From Macrostomum lignano (lineage: Eukaryota): a stretch of 64,000 nt of DNA. The notes beneath the pieces are model-generated. The model ran no database searches. It was not told the origin of the DNA and saw nothing but the letters and a program-made list of their open reading frames with translations. Shown here one piece after another: positions 3,044 through 64,000 of this stretch; position 1 is the stretch's first letter, and each line of letters starts with the position of its first letter. The position numbers and the translations under genes were made by a program. The stretch covers positions 124,001 through 188,000 of the forward strand of contig NIVC01002232.1 in the NCBI GenBank assembly GCA_002269645.1. The letters run 5' to 3'.

Positions 3044-4680
<1,637 letters not shown>

Positions 4681-5294
4681 TATTCTAACGCCACCTGAAT
4701 ATCAAACCGCAGAAATCAACGGGTTTTATGCGAGTTTACTGTATCAGATTTTCTCCTCAAAACTCTAACGCATTCATATCGCATACATCTAGATATTTAA
4801 TATATAGGATGAAGGCTACTCGCCATCCGCCGCGATTCGCCTCTCCCCCAAGCCTCGCCGTTTCATTTGGTTCCAACCGGGCGAGGCCGCCCAGTCTCTC
4901 TGCAAGCGGGGAGCCCCGCAACCCTCGGCCCCCATCAATCACCCGAGAGAGCGGCCGGTTGGCCAACTGGACTGAAGCTCGAGAGCTATTTATAGCACTT
5001 GCTCCTAGGAGAGAAAACTCGCTGGCGGAATACGCCTTACAGATCTGTGCGGCTCGAGCTGGGAAGAAGCTCGCCTTGCCGCTGCCTGCTGTGTGGTGTG
5101 TGTGGAAACTCCCGGAGAGGGATTTTCATACTCCAGAGAAATTGATGGGGCCCAGGCTTTTTCGTCGCGGCTCTCTCTGTAAGGCTTCTGAGATGTTATA
5201 GCATGAGACGGTTTTTACTGCTCTAACGGGTTTCGAGCTGATTGCGTAATCTGCTTGAATAGCTGATTTTCTTGACTGATTCACTGGCTAACTC

Positions 5295-10308: not shown

Positions 10309-10884
10309 CGGCTATACTTTCTATTGATCTTCAAAGCAACTAACTCTCTGCCAGAAGCGACCTTTATTGTTGCATGTGCGCCCTGTGCTCCGTAGAAGTT
10401 AACTAAAAGCAATATAAACATGCCGGTTTCTGTGCCGGCATGTTCTGGCATGCAGAAAAGAAAAGATATTCAAGGAAAAACTCGGCTGCATTTAAGACCT
10501 TGCAGGATTGGCTCGACGCTCTCATTCGCCCCGGAGCACGGATTGCGGTGCGTTTCTTTGCTTTCTTGGCTCCTCTGTGTCCCATTTTCTACTTCTGCCC
10601 GGCAGGCAATTTTACTATTTAAGTTTATGACCTCTTAGTTTCTGTGCGACTTTTTTCTACCAAAGCATTAACAGTGCCTGGGAATTTTTTATAAATTAAC
10701 TCTTTCTTATGTGCAATTAGTATGATTAATATGCATGGTATGAGGTTAGTATGTGTTCTGTACATAGTTCAAAAAATGTATTACTGAGGGGTTTAAAAGT
10801 CGGTGTTGAGTGCTTAAATGTCTAGACATTTAACTCCAGCCAATACGCGATCACGAGGCGTTTGGCGTTCCAAGGCCACTAACT

Positions 10885-32639: not shown

Positions 32640-32789
32640 CTGGAAACAGGTGTGGTGACGCTTGAGCTGGGAGACTGGAACTGCGTGTGAGAAACTAAAT
32701 TCTACGTGACTGAATCACCTTGAGGTGTCTCAGATAAGCCCACAAGAGTCTCAAATCAGCCCCAGATGTTTCAGGTTAGCCATAGATGC

Positions 32790-47454: not shown

Positions 47455-48958
47455 AGTAGTAGTATGTTATAAGGGGCTGCGCCACACTTAATTGCTCGGG
47501 CGCATTGCGCGCCAGCTCGCTGGATGACTCAGCCCCTTATAACATACTACTACTACCAGGAGGTCATGGATTCAAGTGGGGGTGTGATAAATATAAAAAT
47601 ACATATATCTGTGACTGAGGGTGTTGAGGGTGAGGGCATGTGGGGGCATTGGCCTGTGGAATATTTCACAGAACACAGAATTTCCGGAATTTTTATACTT
47701 TTAAAAAGGGGGGGTGCCCTCGCCCTCATGCCCTCACTCATTTTGAAAATCACTAAAAACAGGTGAAAAATGACTAAAAACAGGTGAAAATGGTCTGAAA
47801 ACAGCGATTTTTTGTAATTTTCAAAAATTTTGAAAAAGTGCAATTTTCACGATTCCAGCTCTAAAACCATGAGAAAAGTTGGATCCTCGGGTCAATTTAA
47901 TGCAATTTCAGGTATATACAATATGAAAGTGTCATCCAATTCAACGATAGTAAATTATATATATATAAAATGGCCTTCAGTAAACCAATATTTCTAGGAA
48001 ATGCTTTAGATATTCAGTCAGCTATAACAAAACTACCACCCATCTTTTCCACTGGAAAGTATCCTGGCGAATTTCATATTCCAGGGTATTCTTTCGCAAG
48101 CCAACAGCTCTGACTCACAATGCTGATGATGTATCAGAACCCCGTAACGTGGCACATTTTTGTCTATTTTTAGAACTAGAAAAAAATGAATGAAGCAAAC
48201 ACAAAAGAATCTCAGACACACAGAGTGGGTGGCTCCACTGGAGCACAAAGGCAGCCTTTATTTCAAAGAGTTGTTTTCAAGGTATATACTAAGGTAAGTA
48301 GCGCGGAGTGAATGTTTGAATGATAATTGTCACTTTAAGTAGTAGCATGTCAATTTTTCTGGACGTCCAGAAAAAATTCTGGATATTTGTCTGCCATGTG
48401 TTTATTCATCAATAGAAGCGCTCCCCATTTCGCTAGTGGCTGCTTCAATCGTGTCGTTCTCTTCTTCATCAAGCATGCTGTCATCCTCTCCTTCAAAGTG
48501 CAGTACGATGTCGAGTTCGAGGCGGCATGCGAAATTCTCATCTTCTGATGCTCTTTGTTCAATTGCTCAAAGCAATATCCAGAAATTACCAGACTCGGGT
48601 ACTTTGTTGTTAGCTTGTAGAATGTAAATAGTCGCTGGGCAAACTTCACATCTATATCTAGCTATCTTTTATCTTTTAACAAACACACACAAATAACTAG
48701 CATAACGTTTGAGAGTTGGTGAGTGTGCCAGTCCTGCATCAGCCTGTAAATTGTTGTGAAAGACAGCTAGCATGAGGGGTGCGCCTAGTGTCTTTTATGA
48801 GTTGAATAAGGGGGTTTGATGAAGATGAAAAAACACTGAACTCCTGTGAGAGTCTCGGAGAGTGGCAGCGGAGTGTGGTGTGAGTCAGTCTCAATCTCTC
48901 AATCAGCGAAACCAGAATTCAAAAACCAGATTGTAACTGCTAAATTTTCCTAGAAAAA

Positions 48959-49300
48959 ATGGAAGCTAACCCAAATGTACGAAATGCACTGCCACAAAAG
49001 TATTATGATTCTATTATATATTTTTCTCAAATAAAAACACCCACTCGAAAGGCTCGACTAATTGAAGAAATTGATAAAGCCTACGATGAATATAAAGCAG
49101 AAATATTAAAACACAGCGATTGTAAATGCCCCCCATATTTGTATTCATTCAGAGTATATCTTGCACATGTTGATAAATGGGCATTGATTTCGAGACAGCA
49201 CATAAGGAATGATGAATTTTTCGTCATGCTTAAGTTGAACATTTTCAAACTCCCCATAACCCTTGAGAAGTACATTGAAACTGATGAATTATATTGTTAA
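48959..49300 (+). CDS. Polinton hypothetical protein (113 aa)
   Basis: Intact ORF preceded by AAAAAATG, directly upstream of the primase-helicase. Confidence 0.6.
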   Translation: MEANPNVRNALPQKYYDSIIYFSQIKTPTRKARLIEEIDKAYDEYKAEILKHSDCKCPPYLYSFRVYLAHVDKWALISRQHIRNDEFFVMLKLNIFKLPITLEKYIETDELYC

Positions 49301-49316
49301 ATTTATTTTAAATAAA

Positions 49317-51785
49317 ATGGAAAGAAAAAATCAAAACGATTCAAGTTTCTCTCCTGTGATCGTACAGGATCCGCTTCAAAACCATGATGCCCCACCACCG
49401 CCAAGATTGACAAATTTAAAACAAACAAAATCGTACGATAAACTAATTAATCTCTATGAAGAACTTAATTTTAGATTCGGAAGTTGCAGTGTAACATGGA
49501 ATAGTAAAACAAAGAAAAAAATACCATCAGGAATGCCAACCAAAGCAGATAGGAATTCAACCTCACCACCATTTCGACCAGATGTAGACAACATGATTTG
49601 GATAGATACTAGAAACTCAAATATAACCGTAATCGATATTGATAATGCTGACCTATGCCCTGAGTTGAATGAACTGTGTATGACTCATTGTGATTGGATT
49701 GTTCAGACAAACAAGGGACACCACTTTTACTTTAACAAGGTAGATGAATTGAAAGTAACGATTCAACAAAGTGTGGGTTTTGATATTCCCGCCTTAATAT
49801 TTGCTCCACCAGGTTTCTATTATGTCGATGGTGAAATTAGGGAATACAAACGTACAAAGTCCAAATGTTTAATAGACATGCCAGATGTAGTTCTTGAGGA
49901 GATAAATAGATTAATTGAGCCACAGGATAAAAAAGAAAACCAAGAACCCGATAAACAGGCACTAAAAAGCACCGTTCCACCACCCACTTGTGAAGGAGCT
50001 TCAAAGTTGTTAAGTATAATACAACACAAAAACCAAGACTATGATTCTTGGTACAAGGTAGCACTTATACTCCGCGACATAGACAGTGGTGATGAAATGT
50101 ACAAAGTATTCACTGATTGGTCAAAAGTAAATTATGATAAGTTCGATTCCGAATCATGTAAAAATGTGTGGAATAGCACCAGTACCAGCTCTGCTGATGC
50201 ACAGGACAGACTTACTATCGGTACACTAAAGAAATGGGCAAGTGAAGAAAACTATAACAAATATAAGGAATGGAAAAGCAAATATGATTATTATGGTAGG
50301 ATTGAGTTTCTTGATGATAATTTCACTGACGTTAATATAACCAACTTTGTTTATGAATATAAGAAGAATAATATAATTTACAATAGCGATGGTATTTACT
50401 ATTTTGATGATGATAAGTGGAGAGAACTAAGTAGTATAAATGACATATTTCTTAAAATATCACACCTTGTCAGCAGTGAGTTAAACCACCGAAAGACTAG
50501 ACTCGAAATTGCAATTAAGAAGGCGGCTGATGATAAAGAGAAGTTAAAAGCACTTGAAAAGAAACTACAGAGTACAATGAAGAATATAAATTCAATACAA
50601 GGAGCCAACAAACTAAAACAGGTAACTACTTTGTTCAAAGAGAGGTTTACTAACAATGAAATTGAATTCGACATGAAATGGAATTTGCTAGGGTTTAACG
50701 ATGGAGTATACGACCTCCTTACAGGTGAGTTTCGCGAGTATAGATATGACGATTACGTTACTAAATCGGTGGGATATAAATACTCGGATGTACTTAGAGT
50801 GAGTGATTACGACTATGGCTTCATTGTTAATCTGCATAACCAAATTCATCCCGATCAAGAAAACAGAAAGAGTTGGGAATCCGTTATAGCCACAGCTCTA
50901 ATGGGTAAGAATGTTGAAAACTTTATAATGTTTGATGGCGCTGGTGGAAATGGCAAGGGAGTTGAGGACAACCTACTTCTTAGAACTCTAGGGTCTGATT
51001 ATGCAGCACCACTGAGTCCTGATGTTTTGAATTCACCAATAAGAATAGACAGGCCACAACCAGCCCTAGCACAAATTAATAAAAAGAGGTTGGTTATCAG
51101 TCAAGAAGTAAGTGGTGTCTTGAACAATGCATCAATAAAATTACTAACTGGTGGTGGGGTTATCCAAGCTAGAAATTTATATTCAAGCCAGTGTAATGTC
51201 GTTTTACACGCAACCCTAATAGTCGAATGCAACAACAAGCCTGACTTTAGACAAAATATTGGAGATGCAGAAAAAAGACGAATTATAAATATTAATTACC
51301 CATGTAAATATACAACAGATACCGACATCATTGATCATGCGAAACACATTTATAAAGCCGATTCATATCTTAAAACCGAGGAATTTAAGAATAAATATAA
51401 GTTTGCTGAGATGAAAAACCTACTAGAAATTTTCAAGCAAACAAAGGGTGAAATATATCGATCGAAAAGCGTAATTGAAAACACTAATGAATTCATACAA
51501 AATTGTAATTGGTTTTCTCACTTCTTTGAAGAGAATTATGAATTTTTAGAAACTGAGGAAAAAACATTTATGCTTATTAGAGAAATTTACACTGCCGCAA
51601 CAGAGAGTGAATACTATAGGACTCTAGCCCAACGTGAGAAACGTGAATTCCAACAACAATACATAACAGATTTCTTCAAGAATCACAAAGACTATTGTAA
51701 GTATTATAAGGATAGATATAGGCGTAGGATAGATGGTAAACAGCAAGAAACTAGAAATATTCTGTTTTACTGTGTAAAAAAATAA
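49317..51785 (+). CDS. Primase-helicase: Prim-Pol (AEP) + PriCT-2 + D5_N + SF3 helicase
   Basis: AEP motifs VIDID and TNKGHHFYF; PriCT-2-like YDSWYKV...FTDWS...VWNS...TIGTL; D5_N NLLGFNDGVYDL; Walker A GAGGNGKG and motif C ECNNKP. True start taken as the TAAAATG at 49317. Confidence 0.9.
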   Translation: MERKNQNDSSFSPVIVQDPLQNHDAPPPPRLTNLKQTKSYDKLINLYEELNFRFGSCSVTWNSKTKKKIPSGMPTKADRNSTSPPFRPDVDNMIWIDTRNSNITVIDIDNADLCPELNELCMTHCDWIVQTNKGHHFYFNKVDELKVTIQQSVGFDIPALIFAPPGFYYVDGEIREYKRTKSKCLIDMPDVVLEEINRLIEPQDKKENQEPDKQALKSTVPPPTCEGASKLLSIIQHKNQDYDSWYKVALILRDIDSGDEMYKVFTDWSKVNYDKFDSESCKNVWNSTSTSSADAQDRLTIGTLKKWASEENYNKYKEWKSKYDYYGRIEFLDDNFTDVNITNFVYEYKKNNIIYNSDGIYYFDDDKWRELSSINDIFLKISHLVSSELNHRKTRLEIAIKKAADDKEKLKALEKKLQSTMKNINSIQGANKLKQVTTLFKERFTNNEIEFDMKWNLLGFNDGVYDLLTGEFREYRYDDYVTKSVGYKYSDVLRVSDYDYGFIVNLHNQIHPDQENRKSWESVIATALMGKNVENFIMFDGAGGNGKGVEDNLLLRTLGSDYAAPLSPDVLNSPIRIDRPQPALAQINKKRLVISQEVSGVLNNASIKLLTGGGVIQARNLYSSQCNVVLHATLIVECNNKPDFRQNIGDAEKRRIININYPCKYTTDTDIIDHAKHIYKADSYLKTEEFKNKYKFAEMKNLLEIFKQTKGEIYRSKSVIENTNEFIQNCNWFSHFFEENYEFLETEEKTFMLIREIYTAATESEYYRTLAQREKREFQQQYITDFFKNHKDYCKYYKDRYRRRIDGKQQETRNILFYCVKK

Positions 51786-51806
51786 ACGAAGATGTTATCA
51801 ATGAGA

Positions 51807-54800
51807 TTACATTGGCTGATGAGGAATAGATCTGATAGGATCTAAATAATATCTTTTATCATCTAACGGACTCATTGTTTGTTTCATAATCTCACGAATA
51901 TATATTTTATTTTTTTCAGATACAGTCATACTTACTCTACCTCTTTGAATATCTTTGTAAACTGTCAATAGTATGTTTTTAAATGTTTCAAACTTTATAT
52001 TTGTACTGCTTTTATCAACTCCCTTGATCTTAACACACTCTCCTGAAACTGTAGTGAAAGCATACTCCTTTGACCGCAGGAATACAGCTTCGGAAATTAT
52101 TGAGCCATTCATTTCATCTTTCAACTTTCCAATGACTTTCTTGTTCGTCTCGGAGTATAGTGGATGCTCTATTGGATAATCCGATGTGTCTAAGTGTTCT
52201 TTAATTTTTTTAAGATCCTGATAAACATCCTGAGTAATCACTGAGAATATTAGCGAATCACAATCAGAATAGTGCAATTGACAGCTGTTCCAATTCTTCT
52301 CAATAACATTGTAATAGCAATCGTACATTAGCATTTTTGCATAATCCAGAATAGCCATTCCTAAATAAATTGGCTTGTCACACGCAATTGTCTTTTTGTA
52401 CATTTGGACACCAACTGCATCCTCACTAAACATAATGAAATCTTTGAAATTTGGTTTGGAAAAATAACGCCTTGCAGTTTTTTCTTCAGCTACAAGATGA
52501 AAGTTCGACCTATTCTTTACATTTTCGATTGTTTTACCGTAGAATGAATTGTTCAGTAGTTTCCACAGGTCTTTCTCAAATTTAGTTTTTGCTTCCATTC
52601 TCCGCCTGGTATTAAATTCGATGTATTTACTCAACCAGTTTGACTCTTTGAATGAAAGAATTCTATAAACTCTCGTAACTCGCATGCCCATCTTCTCATA
52701 AAACTCAAGTAGTCTGTGATGTAAAACATATTTCTCCTTGTTGTAAAATGTCAACATCAACTTGGATTGAACAAACTTTTTCTTTTCGACTTCAAGATAT
52801 TGCTTCTGTATATCAGATAAATCCTCAAACCTAGTTGTTCGTTTCTCAGGAGCCAGTGGATATTTACTTGTAGCTTTCTTACATTCCTCTGTATATTCAA
52901 GGTCAACTTCAAGAAAACAACCCCTGCCATTAGGAATATTCTTGTGATACTCTAGATCATTTTCAAACTTGAAATCTCCCACAGGTAGATTTTTCATCAT
53001 TGCTTCACCATATAAATTATTCTTGTCCAAGTATAGCATGTACGACGATTCAGAATTGCTGTCATAATTTTCTAAATACTTATTGTTCATTTTTTTATAT
53101 CGATCTCCAAGAACTCCAGAGAAACCACCGCGAATACCACTTTCTACCATGGATATCATTTCTTTATCACCAAGTAATTCCAATTCCACATTAGTATATT
53201 TCAACCCACATGCCCAAGATAATCCAGAAAGGGAAAAGCAATACGCAGGATCTATCTTGAAATATTTCAAAAATGTTGATCGAAACTTCTCAAAAGCGTT
53301 GACAAATGAGTAAATCTTTCTAATTACTGCGTTGTATCACTGGGTGGCAAATATTTTATTTCTTCTTTAGAGAGTGTAAATGGTGGTTCCAAAAACCTAG
53401 ATCCATCTAAAAACACAACACCACTGGTATAATTCCCCAACTTAATTGCAACATGGTCTTCCGATGTTTTAGAAATAAAATCCAATATTATTTTTTATTA
53501 TTCATTCGTGTTAATGGAGCTATCAAATAGTTTAGATCTTTTCCAGATTCATTCAGGAGAAACAACGGTACTGTTTGATTCGCCTTGCCCTCTTGGTATT
53601 ACATGATTGACATGCTGCGCCGCGATATTTACCATTGTAGTGATTATGCTCTCGAATTTTTTTACTATCTACAAATGGCCTTGAGCAGAGAAAACATTGT
53701 TCTGCCGCTTTGTAATCAGTCTCTTCGACATCACTTAATCTTGGATGTTTATATCTATCCATTTCATTTTTTATATGCTCAAACTTTTTGATTACGGTTT
53801 CAACGAATGATTCCACTGTAGTATTTGAAATAATATCTGATTTTATAATGTCCTCATAGTCGGAACTAGTAAAAAGTGTCCATTGTGATAGCTCTAGTGA
53901 TTTATCATCCATCGTTACATAATCTAATATTGCATAAAACACAAATGGTTTTCTTACACTCATGTGGTAGTTTTTAAACTTTAATATCCTCTTATCAATC
54001 TTTGGAACTTCAATTGACACTTTGAAGTCAGTACAGATTGCTTTATGATTATCCAGTGCATCCTGGGAGTATTTAACTTGAAGACACTTTCGACAAAGAA
54101 AAACCCTGTTGTAATTTTGGGACGTGAGGAATAAACACAAGTCTGTTATTAAACAATAATGATTTTTGACAAGTAGTAAATCAATAACATTGGGGTTGTC
54201 GTAATCTTCTGTCAGACGAATAGAATATATTGACTCTTTAGTATTTATATCCCTTAATCCAAACACATTTATATGAAGACTGTTCAACTTTTCAATCTCA
54301 GAGATATCTCGAATGTCCACTGGAAATTTAACGTCTCCTAAGTTTATTTCATTTATATACTGTGTATACTTACCAACTCTATATCTATGTTCCTTCACAG
54401 GATGGAGCTTTGCTAAAATAGACCAGAGAAAGCACCTATTGTCTGTAGTGTTCTTAACATTTACTAATGCGTTTGATTTAATTGGAATTGGAATATAAGT
54501 TCCTCCTTTCAACTGATTAATGCCAACAACTTTCAACACAATCTTTACTAACTTAACAAAATAATATCCCGATCCCCTTTCATTAAAACTATCCTTCCAT
54601 CCATCGAATTCATCCAGAACATCCTGAATTGTACTTTCTATACTAGTTTCCACTTGGAGAAGATTTAACAAAGTTCGATACTTTGAATGATATTGGAACT
54701 CAATCCAACTGTCGGTAGTTCCTTTATAAAATTCTGCGACAAAGGAAATTCTGTATTTTATTGAATCTCTAGCCATCAAATATTCGGAAAGAATTGGGGA

Positions 54801-54871
54801 GATTAAACCGCGAATTTCTTCAACGGAGTCGAGATCAATTCATAAGAGGCCGCTGGTATTTTCCTTTCCAT
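51807..54871 (-). CDS. Polinton-type family B DNA polymerase (pPolB) with an endonuclease VII-like zinc insert; split by several frameshifts
   Basis: Polymerase motifs GIRGG, YLDKNNLYGEAM, KLLNNSFYGK and YSDCDS. The N-part has CFLWSIL, HYCLI, CFLC and REHNHYNGKYRGAACQSCN. The true ATG is in TAAAAATG at 54871. Frameshifts near 54840 and across 53270-53600. Confidence 0.88.
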
Positions 54872-54896
54872 TTTTAAGAAAAAAAATTAAACAGAC

Positions 54897-55637
54897 TCAA
54901 GCATAGGGGGGTGCACTTGGAGCATTTGATTGAAGATTGAGTGTTGCCGAGTACTCTTTTGGCTTATCAGCTAGACCCAATTTTTCTCTCAGATCTTTCT
55001 CCAGCAGTTCCTTTTTAACTTTTTCCTTCGCTGAATTATCAAGTCTACTCTCTTTGAGGATTTTATCAACGAATTCCGAATGGTTAACTTCTTCAGGCGC
55101 AACACAGGTGTCTAACAATTGGTCTCTTTTCTCTCTGTATTCTGAATAAATTGCAGCAGCTGCTTGAACCTCTTCAAGAGTTAATCTATAATCATCAACT
55201 GCTTTTTGGGAGTAAATATACAATCTCTCTCTGTATTGATTTGCCAGATCTCTGAGAACAATGTATTTTGCCTTCTGCTTTTGGCAATGCATTTTCACAG
55301 TTGCAAACAACGACGTGGATTTTACAGCTTCAAAACCACTCATTGCCCCGATTACTACTCCAATAACTAAGGGATTCAATGTCAGTATCGATGTTGCTAT
55401 GCCAATTCCTGTAGCAGCCAAGAGACTTACATTTCCTGTCACAATGTTGATCCAATTTATCCTGCTACTTTGTCGTTTGTACTTTTTTACCTTTTTGCTA
55501 TAAATTGTAAGATCTTTAGTAATGCATTCAATACTGCCTTTGATTTCACCCTTTCTCTGATTGAAATAGTCCCGCTCCCTCAAATCTGCTTCATGCAGCT
55601 CAACCACAGGATAGATGTGTTCATTTTTTTCATTCAT
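54897..55637 (-). CDS. Polinton membrane-associated protein (hydrophobic hairpin plus coiled coil)
   Basis: Basic stretch KKVKKYKR followed by two hydrophobic segments (NVSLLAATGIGIATSIL, PLVIGVVIGAMSGF); TAAAAATG start. Confidence 0.65.
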   Translation of the reverse strand: MNEKNEHIYPVVELHEADLRERDYFNQRKGEIKGSIECITKDLTIYSKKVKKYKRQSSRINWINIVTGNVSLLAATGIGIATSILTLNPLVIGVVIGAMSGFEAVKSTSLFATVKMHCQKQKAKYIVLRDLANQYRERLYIYSQKAVDDYRLTLEEVQAAAAIYSEYREKRDQLLDTCVAPEEVNHSEFVDKILKESRLDNSAKEKVKKELLEKDLREKLGLADKPKEYSATLNLQSNAPSAPPYA

Positions 55638-55639
55638 TT

Positions 55640-57048
55640 TTATGTGGCGATTATGTCTAAAATCGGATAAAGTTGAAAGCCTGAAACTATAAGAACAGTT
55701 GATCCTTCAGTGGTTGAATTAATATGCACTCTATAAACAGAGAATTTTTCGGTGGAAGCTACTTCGAAATACTTCATCACTCCAGGAACTAAACCAGCGT
55801 TTTCGGTAGAAAAAATATTCTTAAAGTCTCTCTTGTTATTGCTTCCTTTCAGAATAAAAATTTTTGGTTGATTTTTTATAATTTCACTACCCACTGCTTT
55901 GGTTCCTTTCAACCCGAATTTCCAAATTCGAATGGACTCGGGAAGTTGTACTTCAATGTAAGAATTGGGTTCATTCCTCGATGCCCATTCTGAATTAGAT
56001 ACTACATAACCCCAATTATCTGACGTTTCAAATGCTCCTGATGACGCTACATTGAAACCCCTTTCTCTATAGTTTTGACGTGTTGCTAGTGGGGAATATA
56101 TCCTGTATAAGATTTGAAACCTAGTCCCCGCCTTAGTCGCAGCTCCACTGATTCAAGTGCATTGTCTACGTATAGCTTTGGTACAGCTTGAAGTCTATCT
56201 ATAGGCCACACTAAATCATTAACCACTGTTTGTCTCTCAAGTAATTCAACTTTTGTAAGCTTTACGGAACCAGAAAAATTAAGAGAATAATGGAAATAAT
56301 ATGAGGGATTGGGTATTTTTTTCCTAAGATGTGCATTGCCTCTTCGTAGTTCAATGGGTGCACTTTGTTCAACAGGTGTCCAGTTTGTTCCATTTAGGCT
56401 CACACTAACAGACCAACCAGGCCACACCTCTCCTTCCAACTTTATCTCTACAACTTTCCTAGCTCTTTTCAGAAATTGAACTCGTATCCACTTGTCTGAG
56501 TCATCTACACTGCTCCATTCTGAAGCTGGGTTTGAATCTGCAACATGATATGCTGCTGAAGAGTTATGAGAAGCGGTCACTTTCATGTCAGGATGGGAAG
56601 CGTTTGAAGTCAGTAATGAAAGAATATTGACTAATTTCGAACTCTCTGTACCTCCCGCAGTACCTTGCCTTTCTGCTAACAAAGTGTCAATCTCAGTTTT
56701 AGAATACATCTTAGTGTCAATCTCAGTTTTAGAATACATCTTAGTGTCAATTTCGGTTTTAGAATACATCTTAGTGTCAGTTTCGGTTTTTGTGTAGACA
56801 TTGTTTACGCGCCCATGAGCATCGTCAATTAATTGTAGCATGGTGATATTCATTGCGTCACTATCTTCCTTTGAATAAGAGTCTGAAACATTTCTCTTTG
56901 CTAACAATAAATTATCTATTTCCTCTCTCTTATATCCTTCATTTTCATTGATGTATCGATCATCAGCTAACGCTATTGTTATTCCAGGTGCTATATCATT
57001 TGAATTTGACGAGTAACCAAATTGATTGGCAGTATTCTTGTAACTCAT
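55640..57048 (-). CDS. Fibre/spike-like protein with YSKTEIDT repeats and two discoidin (F5/8 type C)-like domains; one -1 frameshift at 56091-56094
   Basis: Domain 1: VTASH...AYHVAD....EWSS...WIRVQF...VEIKL. Adding one C gives YIPPLATRQ...GFNVASS...SEWASRNEPNSYIEVQLPESIRIWKFGL, continuing in frame into ORF 55912-55640. Confidence 0.7.
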
Positions 57049-57476
57049 TTTAATTGCTGCAAAATTTCATTATAGCTATCTCCTTTATCGATTCGGTGTA
57101 AAAAGTACAGCGACATTTGACCACAAAATTTCTTATCAAAAGTTTGAATTTGTTCTTCCATGTCTCCACATATTCTATTCTTTGTGTGATTAAACTTTTC
57201 CATAATTTCCAGTGTGGGCGGTAGTGCATAGGAATCAAAAAAATAAACCTTATCAGGAGCTGAAAATATAGCTGAATGATGTATACCCCGTTCTTTCGAA
57301 GTGTGAATATTTGTCATAAAGTAACCATACTGTGGTAAATCAACAATTTCATCTCTCATGGCATAGCGAAATGGTTTTAACTTGAGATATTTTGCCCAAT
57401 TTATCAGATCAATATTAGTCGTAGTGTCAGTCCCAAACTTTTGTTTAAATGCATTCCATGTCTCAGCTTCGCTCAT
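57045..57476 (-). CDS. Adenain-like cysteine maturation protease
   Basis: His (GIHHSAI), Asp (YFFDSY) and Gln/Cys (QIQ......CGQMSLYFL) motifs of Polinton proteases. The probable start is the TAAAAATG just inside the annotated ORF. Confidence 0.85.
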   Translation of the reverse strand: MSEAETWNAFKQKFGTDTTTNIDLINWAKYLKLKPFRYAMRDEIVDLPQYGYFMTNIHTSKERGIHHSAIFSAPDKVYFFDSYALPPTLEIMEKFNHTKNRICGDMEEQIQTFDKKFCGQMSLYFLHRIDKGDSYNEILQQLK

Positions 57477-57485
57477 TTTTAACAC

Positions 57486-58275
57486 TCATATTTGTCGTAC
57501 GTGTAGATTTATAAATATTTCCTCGCCATCAAAGTCGTATAGAACACCAGACTCATCTTCGATGACAAAGTCGAATGTGCTCAACATGTTTGTAGTTAGT
57601 GGTAGGTACACAGGATTTGCAGGCTCTTGAATAATTTTACTTCCCATTGGGACAGAGAACGATGGAATTGAAAGAAGTATTTGCTTATCAATTAAATGAT
57701 TTCCATTGGCTGGATCAGTGATAAAACCCCCTTTGATATTGAGACAACGAACCATGATCGCACTTCTAGCTCCGTCTATCCGAGCTGGATTTGGAGCTCT
57801 CTCAAATGGTTTCAAATACACTTCCGAATTGAATCCCAACAGTCTTCTAAAGTTATTGGAATGTGCATCCCTGAAATCAACTTGATACTCTGTGGCTAAC
57901 CGTAACTCAACTCTACGCGTGTCTAGGCTTGCACTGAAAACAATAGCCCCTCTTTCCAATCATTTGCAGCTGTTAGCAATCTTTGAATCTCGCTTGACAG
58001 ACTTTTAACTTCCCAAGATCCTGCTTGAATCTTTATTTTTTCCATGTTCTACCACTATCCCTCGAGTATCGCAACTCATTATTGCCTCCTTCAATATTGT
58101 TAATAGCATCAAAGACTGCAAACTTTTTTATACCAGCTTCGTATTCTCGATCTTCATACAAATTTATAGGAGTGCCTAGAGTTTGTCGAAATGGGTTTTT
58201 AATTGAAAAGAAGTCAAATGTGCGTTGAAACTTTTTACTCAAGAGGATGTTGACTTTTTCTATTTCTTTTTCCAT
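57486..58275 (-). CDS. Minor capsid (penton-like) protein, split by two single-base deletions
   Basis: N-part ...INLYEDREYEAGIKKF...AINNI...NNELRY. Restoring one A (58036-58041) and one G (57947-57950) gives WKKIKIQAGSWEV...DWKEGAIVFSAS, then NFRRLLGF, MVRCLNI and IIQEPANPVYLPL...FVIEDESGVLYDFDGE...LHVR. Confidence 0.75.
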
Positions 58276-58533
58276 TTTTAAGCAAGTAATTCTGCTAGCT
58301 CTTTATCAACATTGTTATGTCCCTCTGCTTTTGCGGCTAGTAATGTCAACACTCTTTCACTGAGTCCAGATCCCGGTTTTACTCGATATCCTGGTGGATT
58401 ATCTTTCAATATCCTTACTGCTTGCTTATAATTCCCACTTGATTTGGCCGCTGGATTTTTACATGTTCAATGAGGTTAACATAATCCTGCAATGTTTGCA
58501 TCTTGAATTGCTTCAGCTCTTCACCATTTTCAG

Positions 58534-59007
58534 TTACTTTAGGCATTTTGAACAACTCTTCAAGATCTTCAGAAAATGGCATTCGAATTCGTTGACAATG
58601 ATGTCTCGACCTTGTTCATGGAATTCAACATCTATTACAGATGATCCAAATATATATCCAGCATCAGTTTTTTGAATCCGTATACTAGGCGCTGGTCTTT
58701 GAGTTATTGGAATCTTTCCAATTTCTTCAATTATTTTGTCAAATACTTCCAGAGGTTCAAATCGTCCTTTTGGTGTACTTGATTGCGGAACTGGAACTTT
58801 TTGATTCTGAAGTTTATCAACAAGGTTGGCATTGACATCAATAAATTCATCGAGCTTTTCTGTGACAGGTTTTTGAGCTAATGGAGCCACTCTTGCATAT
58901 AAACTCTCTTCTCCAATTTTCAAATAGCGTTGAGCATCATTTCTGGATTTGTACGTTTCTCGCTGCTTTGCTAAATTAATGAGTTCTCTTATATATTCAT
59001 TAGTCAT
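58534..59007 (-). CDS. Polinton hypothetical protein; may extend to about 58280 through a frameshift
   Basis: TAAAAATG start and AT-rich viral codon usage, between the ATPase and the minor capsid gene. Confidence 0.55.
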   Translation of the reverse strand: MTNEYIRELINLAKQRETYKSRNDAQRYLKIGEESLYARVAPLAQKPVTEKLDEFIDVNANLVDKLQNQKVPVPQSSTPKGRFEPLEVFDKIIEEIGKIPITQRPAPSIRIQKTDAGYIFGSSVIDVEFHEQGRDIIVNEFECHFLKILKSCSKCLK

Positions 59008-59009
59008 TT

Positions 59010-59783
59010 TTACAATGGGATTTTAGTTAGAACATCCTTATACAAATCTTGCTCATCCTCATCAGCTCTTGTATTTATATAGATATAGCCATACTTCTTT
59101 TTCCAAGCCTCTCTACATTTAGCCTTGAATATAGCGGGTTCATAATTCGTTTCTATATTTCTAGCAATGTGATTCAAGTTTGTATCTTTTTGTTTAAAGA
59201 TTATGTAACATGTCGTATTCTCCCTGACAGTATTGCGATCTAGTTTGGTAAAATTTTGAGCTAGATAAAAACCACAACAGTTTCCATGCCTGCCTCTCTG
59301 AAACAGACTTTCCTGAAATGTTTGATTAGCCTCTCCCAAAACATCGTCCAATATCACACATGTCTTTAGTCCATTATGAAAAATTTCTTCATTTGGAGTA
59401 TGGGAAAGAGTGACAGGAATTTTCTCTATTACTTCTGAATTTTCTGATGTGCTTTGCACTCGACCAGGGTTGGCTGCCTCTCGACAAATATGTCTAATAT
59501 CTTCAGGAGATGCATCCTCACTCACCTGGTAGACATGATAGAGTGAGTTGATAAGAGAAGGTGGGAGACCATTTTCAAAGCCATATTTTAGAAACTGATA
59601 CTCTGGATCCATTTGAGATGCTCTGGGAACATATAAAACTAACTCATTAAAGTCAACTAGTTTTTCAGGACTTGTAAGAATATGGAATAGTAAATATGTT
59701 TTACCCGTATTTGTAGCGCCGATAATACAACATAAAAGAGGATTAGGGAAAATAGGATCATGCTGAAATTTTACTTTGGGCAT
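59010..59783 (-). CDS. A32/FtsK-like packaging ATPase
   Basis: Walker A IIGATNTGKT, Walker B VILDD, and FQRGRH...YLAQ...VRENT motifs. Confidence 0.92.
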   Translation of the reverse strand: MPKVKFQHDPIFPNPLLCCIIGATNTGKTYLLFHILTSPEKLVDFNELVLYVPRASQMDPEYQFLKYGFENGLPPSLINSLYHVYQVSEDASPEDIRHICREAANPGRVQSTSENSEVIEKIPVTLSHTPNEEIFHNGLKTCVILDDVLGEANQTFQESLFQRGRHGNCCGFYLAQNFTKLDRNTVRENTTCYIIFKQKDTNLNHIARNIETNYEPAIFKAKCREAWKKKYGYIYINTRADEDEQDLYKDVLTKIPL

Positions 59784-59804
59784 TTAAAAAAAGAAAAAAT
59801 GACC

Positions 59805-61169
59805 TTATTCGACGCGGGTCATTTGATATTCACTGGTAACTTTTATTACATTCTTTGTTTGTTCAAGAATTAGTGCAAAAGCAGTCAGCTCAACATTTGT
59901 TGACTTCTTGATAAATAATTGAATATTCACTCCACTCTTGACCAGAAACTCATCTTGAGCTGTTAGATCAAAGCAAAAGATTGGATAGATGGTTAGAAAG
60001 TCTTGTTTATTGAATGGAGGAGTTACACCGAAACGGCTGCAGATGTCTTCGTACATTTCATACGCTCTGTGAATGTCTTGAGCTACTGGATCAATTTCAA
60101 CATAATCATTCGGATACATCACCTGATTTAATCTGACTTGAAGCTGGGTTATTTTCACTGCATTTGCTCCAGTTTTGTAAGACACATACTTGTGATCATT
60201 AACTATATATGATGGGTTGTTTACGTCATATTTGAAAGCTACAAAGATTGCAAGTGGCATATTGGAGATGTTGGCTATGTTCCATGTATATGGACTTCCT
60301 TGAATGAGTTGTGGTGGAACCGTTACCCTCTCTGGAAATGATACTGTAATGTCCTTGTTGAGTGATTTTAGAAAAGCTGCTTCAGCACTGGGTGACAAAG
60401 TAATAGCAGGGATCCAAATCTCAAAGCTATTAATAGTTAACTTAGCTTCCGTCCCGGCAGCTCCAAAGAAAATTTCAGCATCGTTAGTCTTTCTTGTCCA
60501 TGTGAATTTATATTTAATTCCTTTGCTAATCTTCTGCCAATCAAGGAACCCAATGAGAGGTGTTAATGATAGTTTGATTGTTCCACCTCTGTTTGGAGCA
60601 TTAGTGACATTGTTATAATTTTCAAGCCTCCTAATGTATCCAGTATTCGAATCCTTCTTATTGAGTCTATTTTTCATAGCGATTGCTGCAGTTCTCACAG
60701 CTTCAGCATCTGCGTTGTTTGCTAGAGGTATATCAGAAACAGTCCCAGCATCTCCAGTGTCTGGAATCCATCCGTATGCTTCTCCAACTTCATTCATTAA
60801 TTTTGAGTACATTACGGACTTTAAGATTGTGTCATACTCTCCAGGATCATTATAGACTTTCTTTGTTCCTCCAATGTCAACTATGAGTTGAGAGAAAAGT
60901 CTCATAGGCCAATTATGTTCTAGAGTAATGTTCGTATTCAAGTCGGTGTTATCTCGTTGTGTTATTGAGTATTTTATACAACCGAATGCCTCTGACATGA
61001 GAATGTATGACTCTGTTGAATTGACTTCATGAACTATTTGACCTCCTGCAACATTGAGATTATTAGTGCTACCTGGAGTTGGAGAAATCTTAATATAGTC
61101 TTCTTTCTTTTTGAAAAAGCTAAAAGTTTTGTCCTCATATATGCTCAGTATATCCTTTTTGTTCTCCAT
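59805..61169 (-). CDS. Major capsid protein (double jelly-roll type), 454 aa, intact
   Basis: Size and position next to the ATPase; beta-rich pattern with Polinton MCP-like motifs (NNLN..G.QIV, RLFSQLIV.IGG, QVRLNQVMYP, PIFCFDLT). The fold is inferred, not demonstrated. Confidence 0.82.
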   Translation of the reverse strand: MENKKDILSIYEDKTFSFFKKKEDYIKISPTPGSTNNLNVAGGQIVHEVNSTESYILMSEAFGCIKYSITQRDNTDLNTNITLEHNWPMRLFSQLIVDIGGTKKVYNDPGEYDTILKSVMYSKLMNEVGEAYGWIPDTGDAGTVSDIPLANNADAEAVRTAAIAMKNRLNKKDSNTGYIRRLENYNNVTNAPNRGGTIKLSLTPLIGFLDWQKISKGIKYKFTWTRKTNDAEIFFGAAGTEAKLTINSFEIWIPAITLSPSAEAAFLKSLNKDITVSFPERVTVPPQLIQGSPYTWNIANISNMPLAIFVAFKYDVNNPSYIVNDHKYVSYKTGANAVKITQLQVRLNQVMYPNDYVEIDPVAQDIHRAYEMYEDICSRFGVTPPFNKQDFLTIYPIFCFDLTAQDEFLVKSGVNIQLFIKKSTNVELTAFALILEQTKNVIKVTSEYQMTRVE

Positions 61170-61212
61170 TTTTATAAGAGAAATTTCAACTAAGCTTCAT
61201 GAGGTCTAAGAA

Positions 61213-61641
61213 TTATCCCATTACCCTGTTTCTCCTTTTCAACTTTAAAGTCTTTAGCAGCCACTTGACTGCTTCGCTGGGTACTTGTTCGACTCTTTTA
61301 GCCGCATCAACTAATACTCCACTCCCTTGAGCCTTTTTCAACTCTTCTAGTTTTTGCCGTTCAATGCTTTCTATTGTCTTATTATGTTTAGCATTGTTGG
61401 CTGTATTAACACTTTTTGCAATCATTGTACCAACTCCTGAGGCTGCTCCGATACCACCCAAAATTGCTGGTAGTAAGCCTAATAGAGGAATTATTCCACC
61501 TTCATGTTCTTTCTGTTTCTCTTGCAATTCTCGAATCTTCTCTTTAGAAAGATATTGCTTTTGCTTATTTACAGTAACATATCTTGGTTTTCCCTCTCGA
61601 ACATATCGATTGAGTCTTGCTTCAGTGTTTTTCTCGCTCAT
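61213..61641 (-). CDS. Small virion/core-type protein with amphipathic GGIIPLLGLLPAILGGIGAASGVG segment
   Basis: Basic N-terminus plus the GG-(F/I)-(L/I)-P-L motif recurrent in small Polinton proteins; TAAAAATG start. Confidence 0.65.
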   Translation of the reverse strand: MSEKNTEARLNRYVREGKPRYVTVNKQKQYLSKEKIRELQEKQKEHEGGIIPLLGLLPAILGGIGAASGVGTMIAKSVNTANNAKHNKTIESIERQKLEELKKAQGSGVLVDAAKRVEQVPSEAVKWLLKTLKLKRRNRVMG

Positions 61642-61649
61642 TTTTAAGG

Positions 61650-62072
61650 TCAGAATTTCTTCAAACCATTGCCTTGTCTCAAAGACACTTGAGACTGTTC
61701 TGCTGTTCCTAGAGCCTTTTTAACAATATCTTGAATAGCCTTATTTGATTGAGAAGCTATCTGTTGCTCTTCTTCCATTCTTTTCTTTGCTTCTTTATCT
61801 CTACGTTTCTTTTTAATATATTCCAGTTCCTCACCTGCTTTAGACATGTCACTGTATGATTTCTTCGCATCGAATATGTTCTTCGCTGTGGTAGCTGTTT
61901 TACCTATTGCATCAGCTCCACTCACAATTTTACTTCCATGATTTGATAAAAAGTTTGTGACACCACTGATCATATCACCAATTCCTTCACCCTCTTTATC
62001 AGCTAGTAGTTGTGAATCAGACGTTTCAATCTGACCTTTCGCCCGTTTGCAGTTTGTTCGATAGGCGCTCAT
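61650..62072 (-). CDS. Small Polinton protein with GEGIGDMISGVTNFL amphipathic helix and coiled coil
   Basis: The true start MSAYRTN follows TAAAAATG near 62072; GxG motifs and a C-terminal QGNGLKKF. Confidence 0.6.
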   Translation of the reverse strand: MSAYRTNCKRAKGQIETSDSQLLADKEGEGIGDMISGVTNFLSNHGSKIVSGADAIGKTATTAKNIFDAKKSYSDMSKAGEELEYIKKKRRDKEAKKRMEEEQQIASQSNKAIQDIVKKALGTAEQSQVSLRQGNGLKKF

Positions 62073-63258
62073 TTTTAGTTGAAAAATTTGCTGGTAGAAG
62101 CTGGGATTTGTAAAATGATCCAATGATTTCTTCTCCATTCTCATCCTCAATAATGTAGGTTATGGGATTGGAGTAAACTATTTTCTTTATCCTAAACACT
62201 TCTGAAATTTTCCAATATCCTCTTCGACCCTTTTCAAAGTGCTCCTTATATCTATAGATATGAACTTTGTCACCTACTTTGAAGTTTGGTTTCTCATTTG
62301 AATACTCGAAAGTTGGCTTTGGTACTCGCTCAGGATGTTTAGATGCTTCTGAAGGAGTTATCAGAATCTCAGAATGGATTGTGTTGTTGTATTTTTCAAC
62401 AATAGCTGGCAATGTGTGGAGCCACTTCTGATTACCCTGTAGATCAAATTCAAACCAGAGTTTATTTGTGAGAGTACGATTGAACCTCTCAATCATTGCA
62501 TTCTTGGACTCGCCATAAATTGAAAACATCTTGTTAATATATTCACCCCTTTCATCCTTCTTTCTAATGTTGTCTTTTGAAAACGAGTATAGCTTGTACA
62601 TATGCTGATTATAAAACTCCTTGCCTTCATCTACACAAAGTCTCTCTGATCGTCTTCCTGATTCCTTAAATACTTTTTGGAAAGCTTCTGCAACTTCCGC
62701 TCCCGTCTTTGTTTTCAAAGGAACTGCCCAGGCGTAACGTGTAAAACCATCTATGATAGTTAGAGCATATTTGTAACCTCTTTCGGGCGGTAGGATAATG
62801 ATATCTGCATGCCAAATTGTGTCTTTTGCATAGTGAATCATTTTTCTAAATACTCTTGGCTTTCGATATTCTTTATGCAATTTTACTGCATCTTCATAGC
62901 TAAGACCCTTACCATAAATTGTTAGACAGTCTATACAATTGTTGGGGTTGTGAGTATGAATGCCTAATCCAAACCGAACTTTAGCCTTGATAATACGCTT
63001 TACTAGATTTCGAATGAGTCTCTCTTTCACAGACAAGTCACTGGTTGGAATAGCATCTAAATCAGCTATCATTTTTTCATCAGCTATATGCTTCTTTGCT
63101 AGAGCTTCCTCTGGATTTGAAGAAGTGTTTTCAGCATCTCTATAGTTTTTGTCATGATAGTAAGCAGTCCAATCGATTGGGTTAATTGGTAGACTGTCAT
63201 ACCGAGGCCGGTCTGTAATTGGATTGAGTCTCTTGTCTAAATTTGTACCGGCAGTTGA
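62026..63258 (-). CDS. RVE (retroviral-like) integrase with an N-terminal parvovirus-type phospholipase A2-like domain in the same frame
   Basis: DDE motifs WHAD, IIDGFTRYAWAVPLK, CVDEGKEFYN and MIERFNRTL, and C-terminal PITYIIEDENGEEIIGSFY. The frame is open upstream of Met 63072 to about 63260: GTNLDKRL...LPINPIDWTAYYHDKNY...KHIADEKM...KAKVRFGLG. Confidence 0.85.
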   Translation of the reverse strand, partial: STAGTNLDKRLNPITDRPRYDSLPINPIDWTAYYHDKNYRDAENTSSNPEEALAKKHIADEKMIADLDAIPTSDLSVKERLIRNLVKRIIKAKVRFGLGIHTHNPNNCIDCLTIYGKGLSYEDAVKLHKEYRKPRVFRKMIHYAKDTIWHADIIILPPERGYKYALTIIDGFTRYAWAVPLKTKTGAEVAEAFQKVFKESGRRSERLCVDEGKEFYNQHMYKLYSFSKDNIRKKDERGEYINKMFSIYGESKNAMIERFNRTLTNKLWFEFDLQGNQKWLHTLPAIVEKYNNTIHSEILITPSEASKHPERVPKPTFEYSNEKPNFKVGDKVHIYRYKEHFEKGRRGYWKISEVFRIKKIVYSNPITYIIEDENGEEIIGSFYKSQLLPANFSTKNERLSNKLQTGERSD

Positions 63259-63398
63259 TCCTCAGTCTTTCGAAAGAGGCTGGACTTTATCTTAAGGCAT
63301 CATCAGGATTGACCAGATCCTTCAGCCCCACCTCCATAAAGTCTCTGAACCTTCTCCATATCCTTGTCAACTTTAATGGACGTACCATAGGTACTCGA

Positions 63399-63984
63399 TC
63401 AAAGATCGGACTTAGGAGCTTGGCTGCGGATTTCCACCATGTCCTCAAGCTTGTTACCGTTGGGAACAGGAATTACCTGTGTTCCTTCAGAAGATTTCTC
63501 AGCTGAAGTGGTACTTGAGGCTATTGAAGGAGTTCCCGCAATTTGAAGGTGTCGCCATTCACTAAGCACTTGTTTAACCTTGGTTATAATGTTTGTGTAT
63601 TTATCCCGATAAAGAAATTTCAATGCAAATTCTCCTGTTAAGGGTGATTCCATTGTCTAGTAAAATATTCTTAGGTTCGTTTGCAGTTTTATTGATGCAT
63701 ACATAAAACAACTGGTAGGTGGGATTAGACTTTTTATAGTCTAATAGTTTCCGATAGTTACTTTCACGACTTGAGGAATTGTCTGTGTTATCAGAAGATT
63801 TAAGCTCTAATGCAATCTTTCGCTCAACGTGAACCAGGTCAATCTTTTTTACCTTTTCGAATCCAAAATATTTTTCTGCTAAAACTTCATATAGTCTACC
63901 TAGTCTCATTTGAATAACTTTAATCTTGTGTGAAATTATTAGCTCTTCTTGAAATAAATCGCAAAGAATTTGGTCATACCCCAC
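63399..63984 (-). CDS. PD-(D/E)xK nuclease, Eco47II/Sau96I restriction-endonuclease-like; +1 frameshift at 63642-63644; the N-terminus may extend beyond the window
   Basis: MRLGRLYE...IDL......ALELKSSDNTDNSSS matches the G..HE / D / ExK-xxx-NTxNSSS signature recalled for Eco47II-family enzymes. Removing one C joins NGIT to LTGEFALKFLYRDKY. Confidence 0.55.
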
Positions 63985-64000
63985 CTTGTCGTCAATTGGT

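Follow-up and report, generated by a model that had tools for sequence, protein, structure and literature searches.

A group I intron with a restriction-type nuclease interrupts a phospholipase A2-integrase gene in a Macrostomum lignano Polinton

Introduction

The DNA analyzed here is a 64,000-nt stretch of Macrostomum lignano (the window, to which all coordinates refer), and its last part, 47455-64000, belongs to a multi-copy group-2-like Polinton (Maverick/adintovirus) that continues past the end of the window. Close to that end, the element carries an integrase gene whose open frame begins within the core of a parvovirus-type phospholipase A2 (PLA2) domain and lacks the front of the domain, including its calcium-binding loop. 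The locus therefore raises the question of whether this gene is broken or whether something has been inserted into it. The reading that we favor, with a probability of roughly 0.62, is that a mobile group I intron carrying a captured GGNCC-centered nuclease occupies the PLA2-integrase gene and that the element is immune to the nuclease through the loss of its sites.

The integrase is encoded in frame with a PLA2 domain

The minus-strand frame at 63261-62026 comprises 411 codons with zero stops. Its first methionine is codon 64 (63072), and the ~63 open codons ahead of it agree with the 62 or so counted in a preliminary description of this DNA, which had proposed that a PLA2 domain is fused in frame to the integrase. 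Exon 2 of the gene (62026-63251, minus strand) encodes a PLA2 core with its His-Asp, Tyr, and Asp residues, a G-x-G linker, an RVE integrase (D,D,E), and a C-terminal barrel domain. The core is marked on the minus strand by the motifs GTNL (63249-63238), PINPID (63189-63172), YYHD..Y (63162-63142), and AD (inside 63087-63070), and a conserved G-x-G motif that reads FGLG (62962-62973) closes the domain. The Cys/His linker that had been described between the two domains is present at 62958-62926. Integrase catalytic residues lie at 62814-62797 (D), 62637-62623 (D), and 62493-62479 (E), and the protein terminates without a chromodomain.

Profile searches of the extended frame bore out the integrase half of the proposal more firmly than the PLA2 half. 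The Pfam family rve (PF00665) was matched above its cut-off (E = 5.9e-10, 39.7 bits), whereas Phospholip_A2_4 (PF08398) was matched with E = 0.0032 and 18.1 bits, under the cut-off of 23.9, because the first part of the domain is absent from the continuous frame. This absence includes the YxGPG loop, as had been noticed. In P0122 and P0002, natural relatives of full length, both Pfam matches exceed their cut-offs, with PLA2 scores of 34.7 and 40.5 bits.

The same architecture recurs in other Polintons. Both PF08398 and PF00665 were found in a single open reading frame (ORF) in 31 of the 120 listed homologues, at 34-74% identity. By motif, the PLA2 His-Asp signature occurs in 38 of the 120, of which 31 also have a calcium-loop-like motif, and 29 of these 38 fused homologues carry K/R-L/F/V-G-x-G ahead of the integrase core. 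The PLA2 catalytic residues and the glycine of the FGLG site are each invariant in 26/26 aligned rows. We conclude that the PLA2-integrase fusion is a real and widespread Polinton architecture that is general rather than specific to this copy.

Assembled contigs agree with this conclusion. Contigs from four sequencing runs (X1, X2, X9, and X16), of 24 listed, were compared with the window, and an X1 contig that spans 58782-63084 bridges the PLA2/integrase join with three differing letters and one gap. The insertion or deletion (indel) listed for X1 in that interval, at 61246, lies outside the gene. It might still be argued that an error-prone assembly hides a stop codon or frameshift and that the fusion is an artefact, since several indels separate the window from the contigs within the element, and since two loci, L006 (9641-11223) and L008 (7066-8480), hold PLA2 directly before the integrase as adjacent ORFs in different frames. 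The bridging contig and the 31 homologues with both domains in one ORF largely refute this argument, and we give it almost no credence. In L006 and L008 the frame changes directly behind the G-x-G motif and close to a run of A, and these loci possibly represent a programmed-frameshift version of the fusion, or sequencing errors.

The distribution of the fusion is less simple than these counts suggest. PLA2 is a separate, opposite-strand gene in six IMG/VR loci. One metagenome scan yielded two loci, and a scan of viral contigs with the single protein P0002 yielded zero confirmed loci. On a quick tree of 82 integrase rows, the window falls within a starred set that has 25 fused rows among its 39, and fused rows occur in three further groups. 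The fused/unfused label requires 16 changes on this tree, in which many unfused rows are truncated, and the tree shows neither a single origin of the fusion nor its exclusion.

Structure models are in keeping with two joined domains. The P0122 model has a confident helical domain at residues ~30-131, a low-confidence linker at 133-150, and then the integrase, and it matches integrase folds with Z scores up to 18.6. For residues 23-138, the best non-integrase match is rice PLA2 (2wg7), at a middling Z of 7.8 and a root-mean-square deviation (rmsd) of 3.5 over 94 aligned residues. A BFVD structure search returned integrase matches only, and a PDB sequence search with the PLA2 part returned 0 hits. 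We also considered whether the Cys/His linker is a conserved zinc domain and rejected this, because in the alignment the linker is limited to the closest relatives rather than family-wide, and the predicted local distance difference test score (pLDDT) at 133-150 is <50.

The preliminary description had further suggested that the viral protease may cleave the protein at FGLG. Motifs resembling G-x-G also occur in two small ORFs that neighbor the PLA2-integrase gene, and together with the conservation of the site they make cleavage there by a cysteine protease plausible.

A group I intron splits the calcium loop

The sequence immediately upstream of exon 2 explains why the front of the PLA2 domain is missing. 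Rfam family RF00028 matches 63261-63621 with 82.6 bits (cut-off 50; E = 3.1e-21) over model positions 1-253 of 253, and this is the sole Rfam match in the whole window. The ribozyme core, which is IC1-like, occupies 63252-63551 on the minus strand and comprises P3, P4, P5, P5abc with a GAAA loop, P6/P6a with an 11-nt receptor, P7, P8, P9.0, and P9. The helices were picked by hand, and the counts give pairing alone: 7/7 pairs for P3, 6/6 for P4, 5/6 for P5, 2/2 for P6, 4/4 for P6a, 6/6 for P7, 4/4 for P8, 2/2 for P9.0, and 4/4 for P9. Within P5abc, pairing is likewise complete for P5a (7/7), P5b (6/6), and P5c (5/5). The P5abc extension, a GAAA loop on P5b, and an 11-nt receptor in P6a are the marks of subgroup IC1. 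The GAAA loop on P5b and both receptor halves in P6a were located, and these features point to subgroup IC1.

P9.0 sets the terminal G of the intron at 63252, immediately before a Pro codon. The intron thus enters the PLA2 calcium loop after its Gly codon and before its Pro codon; this loop is whole in P0002 and P0122 and split by the intron in the window. What had been taken for a damaged or rearranged 5′ end is the 3′ end of a group I intron, which precedes the Pro-Gly-Thr codons, and the missing N terminus is found elsewhere in the element (see below). A spliceosomal intron was rejected as a candidate, because inspection by eye showed no correctly framed AG acceptor ahead of the Pro codon. 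Given the structure, the intron should excise itself from RNA and restore the full protein.

We also weighed the idea that the intron is a relic that no longer splices, such that PLA2 is dead and translation from an internal start, or from one derived from the intron, yields an integrase shortened at its N terminus. Gene callers do start the related proteins P0001, P0003, P0123, and P0124 at a Met within intron sequence, and the minimum-energy fold computed for a portion of the intron core did not exceed those of shuffles in stability (z = -0.57), although this z-score is uninformative because a group I core is pseudoknotted. However, every checked core helix pairs; P7, which forms the guanosine site, is intact, as are P9.0 and the terminal G; the PLA2 catalytic residues are conserved; and the element family is multi-copy with long contigs ~99% alike. 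A relic is therefore improbable. The four proteins belong to a sister family (79% identity) and begin with intron-derived residues: the start of P0001 matches the 3′ end of the window intron at 75% over 12 residues. P0122, which falls in the 90% cluster of P0001, has the whole calcium loop.

An Rfam scan of 12 integrase loci found the intron in 0/12. Among the fetched loci, the introns most similar to the window intron are those of giant-virus-type contigs. Several virus contigs (L084 at 4402-5646, L076, L048, and L049) have three or four group I introns each, and three consecutive introns of L084 lie shortly ahead of a piece of a giant-virus-type capsid ORF.

Intron-plus and intron-free copies both exist

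The missing N-terminal portion is encoded at 47970-48098 on the plus strand, where 43 codons reaching into the calcium loop are 91% identical to residues 1-43 of P0002; residues 46-359 of the same protein match 63249-62263 on the minus strand at 74%. Because the intron needs a first exon upstream on its own strand, these 43 codons are expected to recur beyond 64000, presumably in the right terminal repeat, and the copy at 47970-48098 most likely belongs to the left terminal inverted repeat. Exon-1 peptides standing on their own were searched for and not found. The left-end copy stops one codon before the GGNCC site discussed below, an end point compatible with cutting as well as with a boundary of repeat copying.

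Contigs reveal two kinds of junction. The intron-side junction is covered in 4/4 runs, and an intron-free joint, 48095 to 63249 on opposite strands, is present in 2/4 (X2 and X9; not X1 or X16). The joint has a depth of 14.3 and a short side of 102 letters in X2, and a depth of 115 and a short side of only 30 letters in X9. Contig cover of the element is fairly even across all 30 bins, so the joints are more likely intron-free DNA copies than spliced RNA. Thus, both allele types exist, and most copies are interrupted. The loose end behind 48098 in X2 is a mixed consensus of two contigs, with an agreement of 0.7.

These joints must also be read against a different history, in which an inversion of ~15 kb broke the gene, leaving 47970-48098 as its sole exon 1 and no way to join the two halves. 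The halves do lie on opposite strands, the X2/X9 joint links opposite strands, and the right end of the element is outside the window. Such an inversion leaves unexplained why a complete ribozyme ends exactly at the Pro codon, and the same junction recurs in the family that is 79% identical. The reciprocal joint is absent among the 15 joints listed of 27. Moreover, depth in the first bin (47400-47953) exceeds that of the interior in 4/4 runs, which fits a repeat at both ends, although contig depth is a noisy and poor measure of copy number (896 versus ~220-300 in X9, only 25 versus 21 in X1). We consider an inversion very improbable.

Several frame breaks in the window are probably assembly errors. 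At the start of exon 2 (63247-63251, minus strand), similarity to P0001 shifts frame, and contigs of 4/4 runs have a one-base indel at 63247. Further indels relative to the contigs occur at 63638, 57946, and 58035 in 4/4 runs, at 56091, 58462, and 61246 in 3/4, and at 54836 in 2/4. The element is present in 20 runs from 8 studies under one organism label; no RNA run is among those listed, which carries no weight for or against splicing. The host-element junction is in no listed contig, and it is the window that places the integration at this exact site. Adjoining the left repeat on its inner side, 48099-48940 varies among copies, with lower depth and several loose ends: X2 and X16 have a 732-letter insert at 48667, and X9 skips 789 nt within the region. 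A 22-nt palindrome lies at 48354-48375.

The intron encodes a nuclease of the Eco47II family

On the minus strand at 63315-64000, the intron contains a PD-(D/E)xK nuclease ORF of the Eco47II family (PF09553; E = 2.1e-6, 27.9 bits versus a cut-off of 25.9) that starts beyond the window and whose tail reads into the ribozyme core. The ORFs 63601-64000 and 63399-63656 are one gene in two frames, with the switch near 63640; homologues align across both, and contigs of 4/4 runs have an indel at 63638. PF09553 is matched by 76/80 aligned relatives, among which the D, E, and K of the D...E-x-K core are each conserved at 90% or more. Of 155 relatives scanned, six have tails that read through the P3/P4 strand of the ribozyme; these six belong to the closest relatives, and alignments of P0161 and P0305 cover the same overlapping tail. 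Because the closest relatives run through the ribozyme in this way, the nuclease subfamily is intron-borne.

The model of a relative, P0150 (pLDDT 86), is a compact single domain whose closest match is EcoO109I (Foldseek E = 4.5e-4; VIA Z 9.6, rmsd 4.3, 168 aligned residues); the next best Z was 6.8, and AvaII was also high in Foldseek. NCBIfam and PHROGs profiles added nothing on the nuclease. Eco47II recognizes the site GGNCC. EcoO109I cuts RG^GNCCY (PMC3089450), and the site of Sau96I is GGNCC (PMC6346686).

More distant relatives point to a restriction-modification origin. In P0174 and P0239, the nuclease is fused to a C5 methylase, and a C5 methylase adjoins the nuclease in 12/13 loci of giant-virus-type contigs, many of them named giant-virus bins; 10 of the 13 loci were found via the nuclease and 3 via the methylase. 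A similarity comparison with the methylase of this family revealed none in the window up to 64000, past which a few hundred more bases are expected. An Rfam scan found the intron in 0/9 giant-virus-type nuclease loci, the window nuclease is in none of the intron-motif loci, and an alignment scan of viral contigs with the 7 closest nucleases gave zero confirmed loci.

The part of the element in the window is devoid of GGNCC

Adjacent Gly and Pro codons always spell GGNCC, and the intron-free calcium loop is therefore a GGNCC site that the intron splits. Throughout the part of the element in the window (47455-64000; 16,546 nt), GGNCC occurs 0 times, versus 17.7 expected from dinucleotides. Markov simulations gave 15.3 +/- 4.0 sites with a minimum of 6 in 300, and synonymous shuffles of 15 ORFs gave 6.5 +/- 2.3, with 0/1000 as low as observed. 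GGNCC is the rarest of 256 spaced words in the element, and the next lowest ratio is 0.56. Consistent with this, Gly-Pro occurs 0 times in 17 element ORFs versus 7.5 expected. Other Polinton-type loci are unpurged in 10/10 cases, with GGNCC ratios of 0.75-1.78.

Thirteen fused relatives (P0007, P0009, P0011, and P0126-P0135) have Gly-Ala-Gln instead of Gly-Pro-Gly in the calcium loop, a change that removes the obligatory GGNCC. Gly-Pro is scarce in fused integrases, but we rejected the idea that this indicates avoidance across the family, given that unfused ones show a deficit too (3 of 13.7 expected versus 9 of 25.1). Zero GGNCC was likewise seen in L139 (20987 nt; 37.9 expected), which has a methylase-nuclease pair, and in L049 (16.1 expected), which is without a match to the nuclease profile.

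Proposed homing of the intron and site loss

The observations above can be assembled into a model. The integrase and an N-terminal parvovirus-type PLA2 domain would be produced as a single polypeptide, and by analogy this precursor may be packed into the particle, where the protease of the element would cut it at G-x-G into an endosome-escape lipase and an integrase. The mobile group I intron that interrupts the calcium loop in most copies is predicted to remove itself from RNA and so allow the full protein to be made. Its nuclease, with a specificity probably centered on GGNCC, would have been captured from a giant-virus-type restriction-modification system, leaving the methylase behind. Because Gly-Pro codons cannot avoid GGNCC, the calcium loop is the one site that the element cannot easily lose. 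The intron splits that site and zero others are left, so intron-plus elements would be immune, and intron-free copies would be cut at the insertion point and converted by repair, which amounts to homing.

Several observations weigh against this model. The 5′ end of the intron, P1, and the right-hand exon 1 all lie beyond 64000, and the GGNCC specificity is drawn from family, fold, and site loss. Host DNA has 62 GGNCC sites in the first 47 kb of the window; a plain five-base cutter without a methylase should damage the host, and either a longer real site or tight control must then be assumed. Such control may exist, as the nuclease ORF overlaps the ribozyme core and core-overlapping intron ORFs are described as tightly controlled (PMC3984707). 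The host count is itself somewhat low, at 62 versus 120-134 expected, although this comparison is confounded by tandem repeats. Among 35 control aquatic virus loci without the nuclease, GGNCC is the rarest word in 10 and wholly absent in 1. Finally, the 13 methylase-linked loci show GGNCC below expectation in 12 and above it in 1, and it is the rarest word in only 3, namely L139 (0 of 37.9 expected), L145 (36 of 131), and L148 (2 of 5.3).

These points lend some weight to classical homing on top of an older purge, in which GGNCC was lost earlier under a co-infecting giant virus or another enzyme, the nuclease reads a long site spanning the Gly-Pro codons, as other homing endonucleases read long sites, and the shielding of the last GGNCC by the intron is incidental. 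The frequent under-use of GGNCC in the controls fits an older purge, and with a long site the host would be spared. The 13 relatives with Gly-Ala-Gln could have escaped from either enzyme, and the case of I-Ssp6803I demonstrates that this fold is able to recognize as many as 17 bp (PMC3424549). The nuclease model, however, is a compact single domain nearest to short-site enzymes, and its relatives are methylase-linked. Total absence of GGNCC is also rare in the controls, whereas all 10 of the other Polinton-type loci retain the site. We therefore judge classical homing after an older purge to be unlikely, though it deserves to be kept in mind.

The model of a captured, GGNCC-centered nuclease with protection by site loss can be extended. 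The locus may hold a working group I ribozyme in animal nuclear DNA on an active Polinton, with a short-site restriction enzyme of giant-virus origin as its homing nuclease. Element and intron together would work as a restriction system that has no methylase: siblings lacking the intron would be converted, and DNA of rival viruses or of the host may be cut. We put forward this extended version only tentatively, at somewhat less than even odds.

Remainder of the element and surrounding DNA

The left end of the element (47455-48098) begins with an AGTAGT terminus and a 25-nt perfect inverted repeat (47455-47479/47530-47554) and is probably the left terminal inverted repeat; the right end of the element lies outside the window. 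Its first 100 nt (47455-47554) form a hairpin-like stretch directly after a broken Gypsy-like protease/reverse transcriptase region (46325-47454).

Virion genes lie on the minus strand: a double jelly-roll major capsid protein (59805-61196; PF21738, E = 2.1e-13), an A32-like packaging ATPase (59010-59783; PF04665, E = 6.9e-6), and part of a probable minor capsid (penton) gene (57486-57959) with 32% identity (E = 4e-16) to a 256-residue ORF beside the L006 ATPase. The name penton comes from gene position, and the indels at 57946 and 58035 fall in or near this gene. An adenain-like cysteine protease (57045-57485, minus strand) has His, Asp, Gln, and Cys aligned with an L008 ORF (E = 4e-8); Pfam and further profile scans gave no protease match for it. 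F5/8 type C (discoidin-like) domains occur in two adjacent ORFs at 55640-57066, one of which also contains short repeats of 10 residues; both ORFs probably encode fiber or receptor-binding proteins.

Replication genes comprise a Polinton-type family B DNA polymerase in pieces (51807-54839, minus strand), which is 39% identical (E = 2e-109) to a 1320-residue polymerase-like L008 ORF, and a primase-helicase (Prim-Pol, PriCT-2, D5-like; 49260-51785, plus strand) that matches PF08706 (E = 5e-12) and PF08707 (E = 3.5e-11). The N-terminal polymerase piece has Endonuclease_7, and the C-terminal piece has zero polymerase Pfam matches. Region 49260-54839 thus holds a polymerase and a convergent primase-D5 helicase gene, a combination that has been called uncommon (PMC3671162).

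Host DNA in the window includes a carnitine/choline acyltransferase gene in at least five pieces (13839-32714, minus strand), with large introns that contain tandem repeats and other ORFs (23162-25756). An ORF at 8644-10311 has one EGF-like domain and a membrane segment and scores 0.94 by features versus neuregulin-like clusters. It resembles EGFR-ligand (neuregulin/gurken-like) clusters whose listed rows are all chordate or nematode, a lead that comes without an alignment.

Significance and comparison with known systems

An intron in an animal Polinton would provide a natural test of ribozyme splicing from a protein-coding transcript in an animal nucleus. Its nuclease resembles a restriction enzyme on the way to becoming a homing endonuclease, with GGNCC at Gly-Pro codons as the predicted target. 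The presence of intron-plus and intron-free copies in one species suggests that copies of the Polinton come together and recombine, a point relevant to whether these elements are active viruses. The fusion offers a simple route for the integrase into the particle, and genes called as truncated integrases or damaged PLA2 in Polintons can conceal introns.

The fusion is apparently undescribed. Full-text literature searches, with most subscription papers and all supplements outside their coverage, found neither a description of a PLA2-integrase fusion, nor a group I intron in an animal Polinton, nor an Eco47II-type intron nuclease, and in a coral polintovirus paper (PMC11131425) the terms phospholipase, PLA2, intron, and fusion are all absent. 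The nearest described proteins are PLA2X of adintoviruses and Polintons (Starrett et al. 2021, PMC8502044) and the 'CAP' ORF of the Sf Maverick (PMC5803895), which likewise place a parvovirus VP1-type PLA2 in the Polinton virion module, where it is proposed to disrupt membranes at entry. In both reports the PLA2 domain is described as a gene of its own, which in the PLA2X of alpha adintoviruses has a C-terminal pX-like domain (PMC8502044), whereas in the window PLA2 runs on into the integrase.

Introns of the same family, RF00028, also occur inside small integrating double-stranded DNA viruses, the Polinton-like viruses of protists, and are reported as restricted to elements of Paulinella, Desmodesmus, and Rhodomonas (PMC12220804). 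Those of Rhodomonas are 309-376 bp and sit in a short unannotated gene before the capsid gene, with no nuclease named. The window differs from them in that the host is an animal, the interrupted gene is the PLA2-integrase gene, and the intron carries a nuclease. More broadly, the listed range of group I introns takes in bacteria, phages, viruses, organelles, and nuclear ribosomal DNA in fungi, plants, and algae (PMC3984707).

Mobile introns of the I-Ssp6803I type also combine a restriction-fold nuclease with a group I intron at a conserved coding site, and ORFs that run into the ribozyme core are known for mobile group I introns (PMC3424549, PMC3984707). I-Ssp6803I belongs to PF11645, is prokaryotic, and has a 17-bp site, whereas the window nuclease is PF09553/EcoO109I-like, has methylase-linked relatives, and would have a short site that the element has lost. 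Giant-virus contigs (IMG/VR L076, L084, and L137-L149) supply both the most similar fetched introns and the methylase-linked nuclease relatives, but there the intron and the nuclease are found apart. EcoO109I, Sau96I, and Eco47II match the window nuclease in fold or profile and share its conserved D...E-x-K core; unlike these type II enzymes, it stands without a methylase in the window and inside an intron of a eukaryotic element. Phages avoid Sau96I sites and are protected through site loss (PMC6346686), and the element appears to be protected in the same manner.

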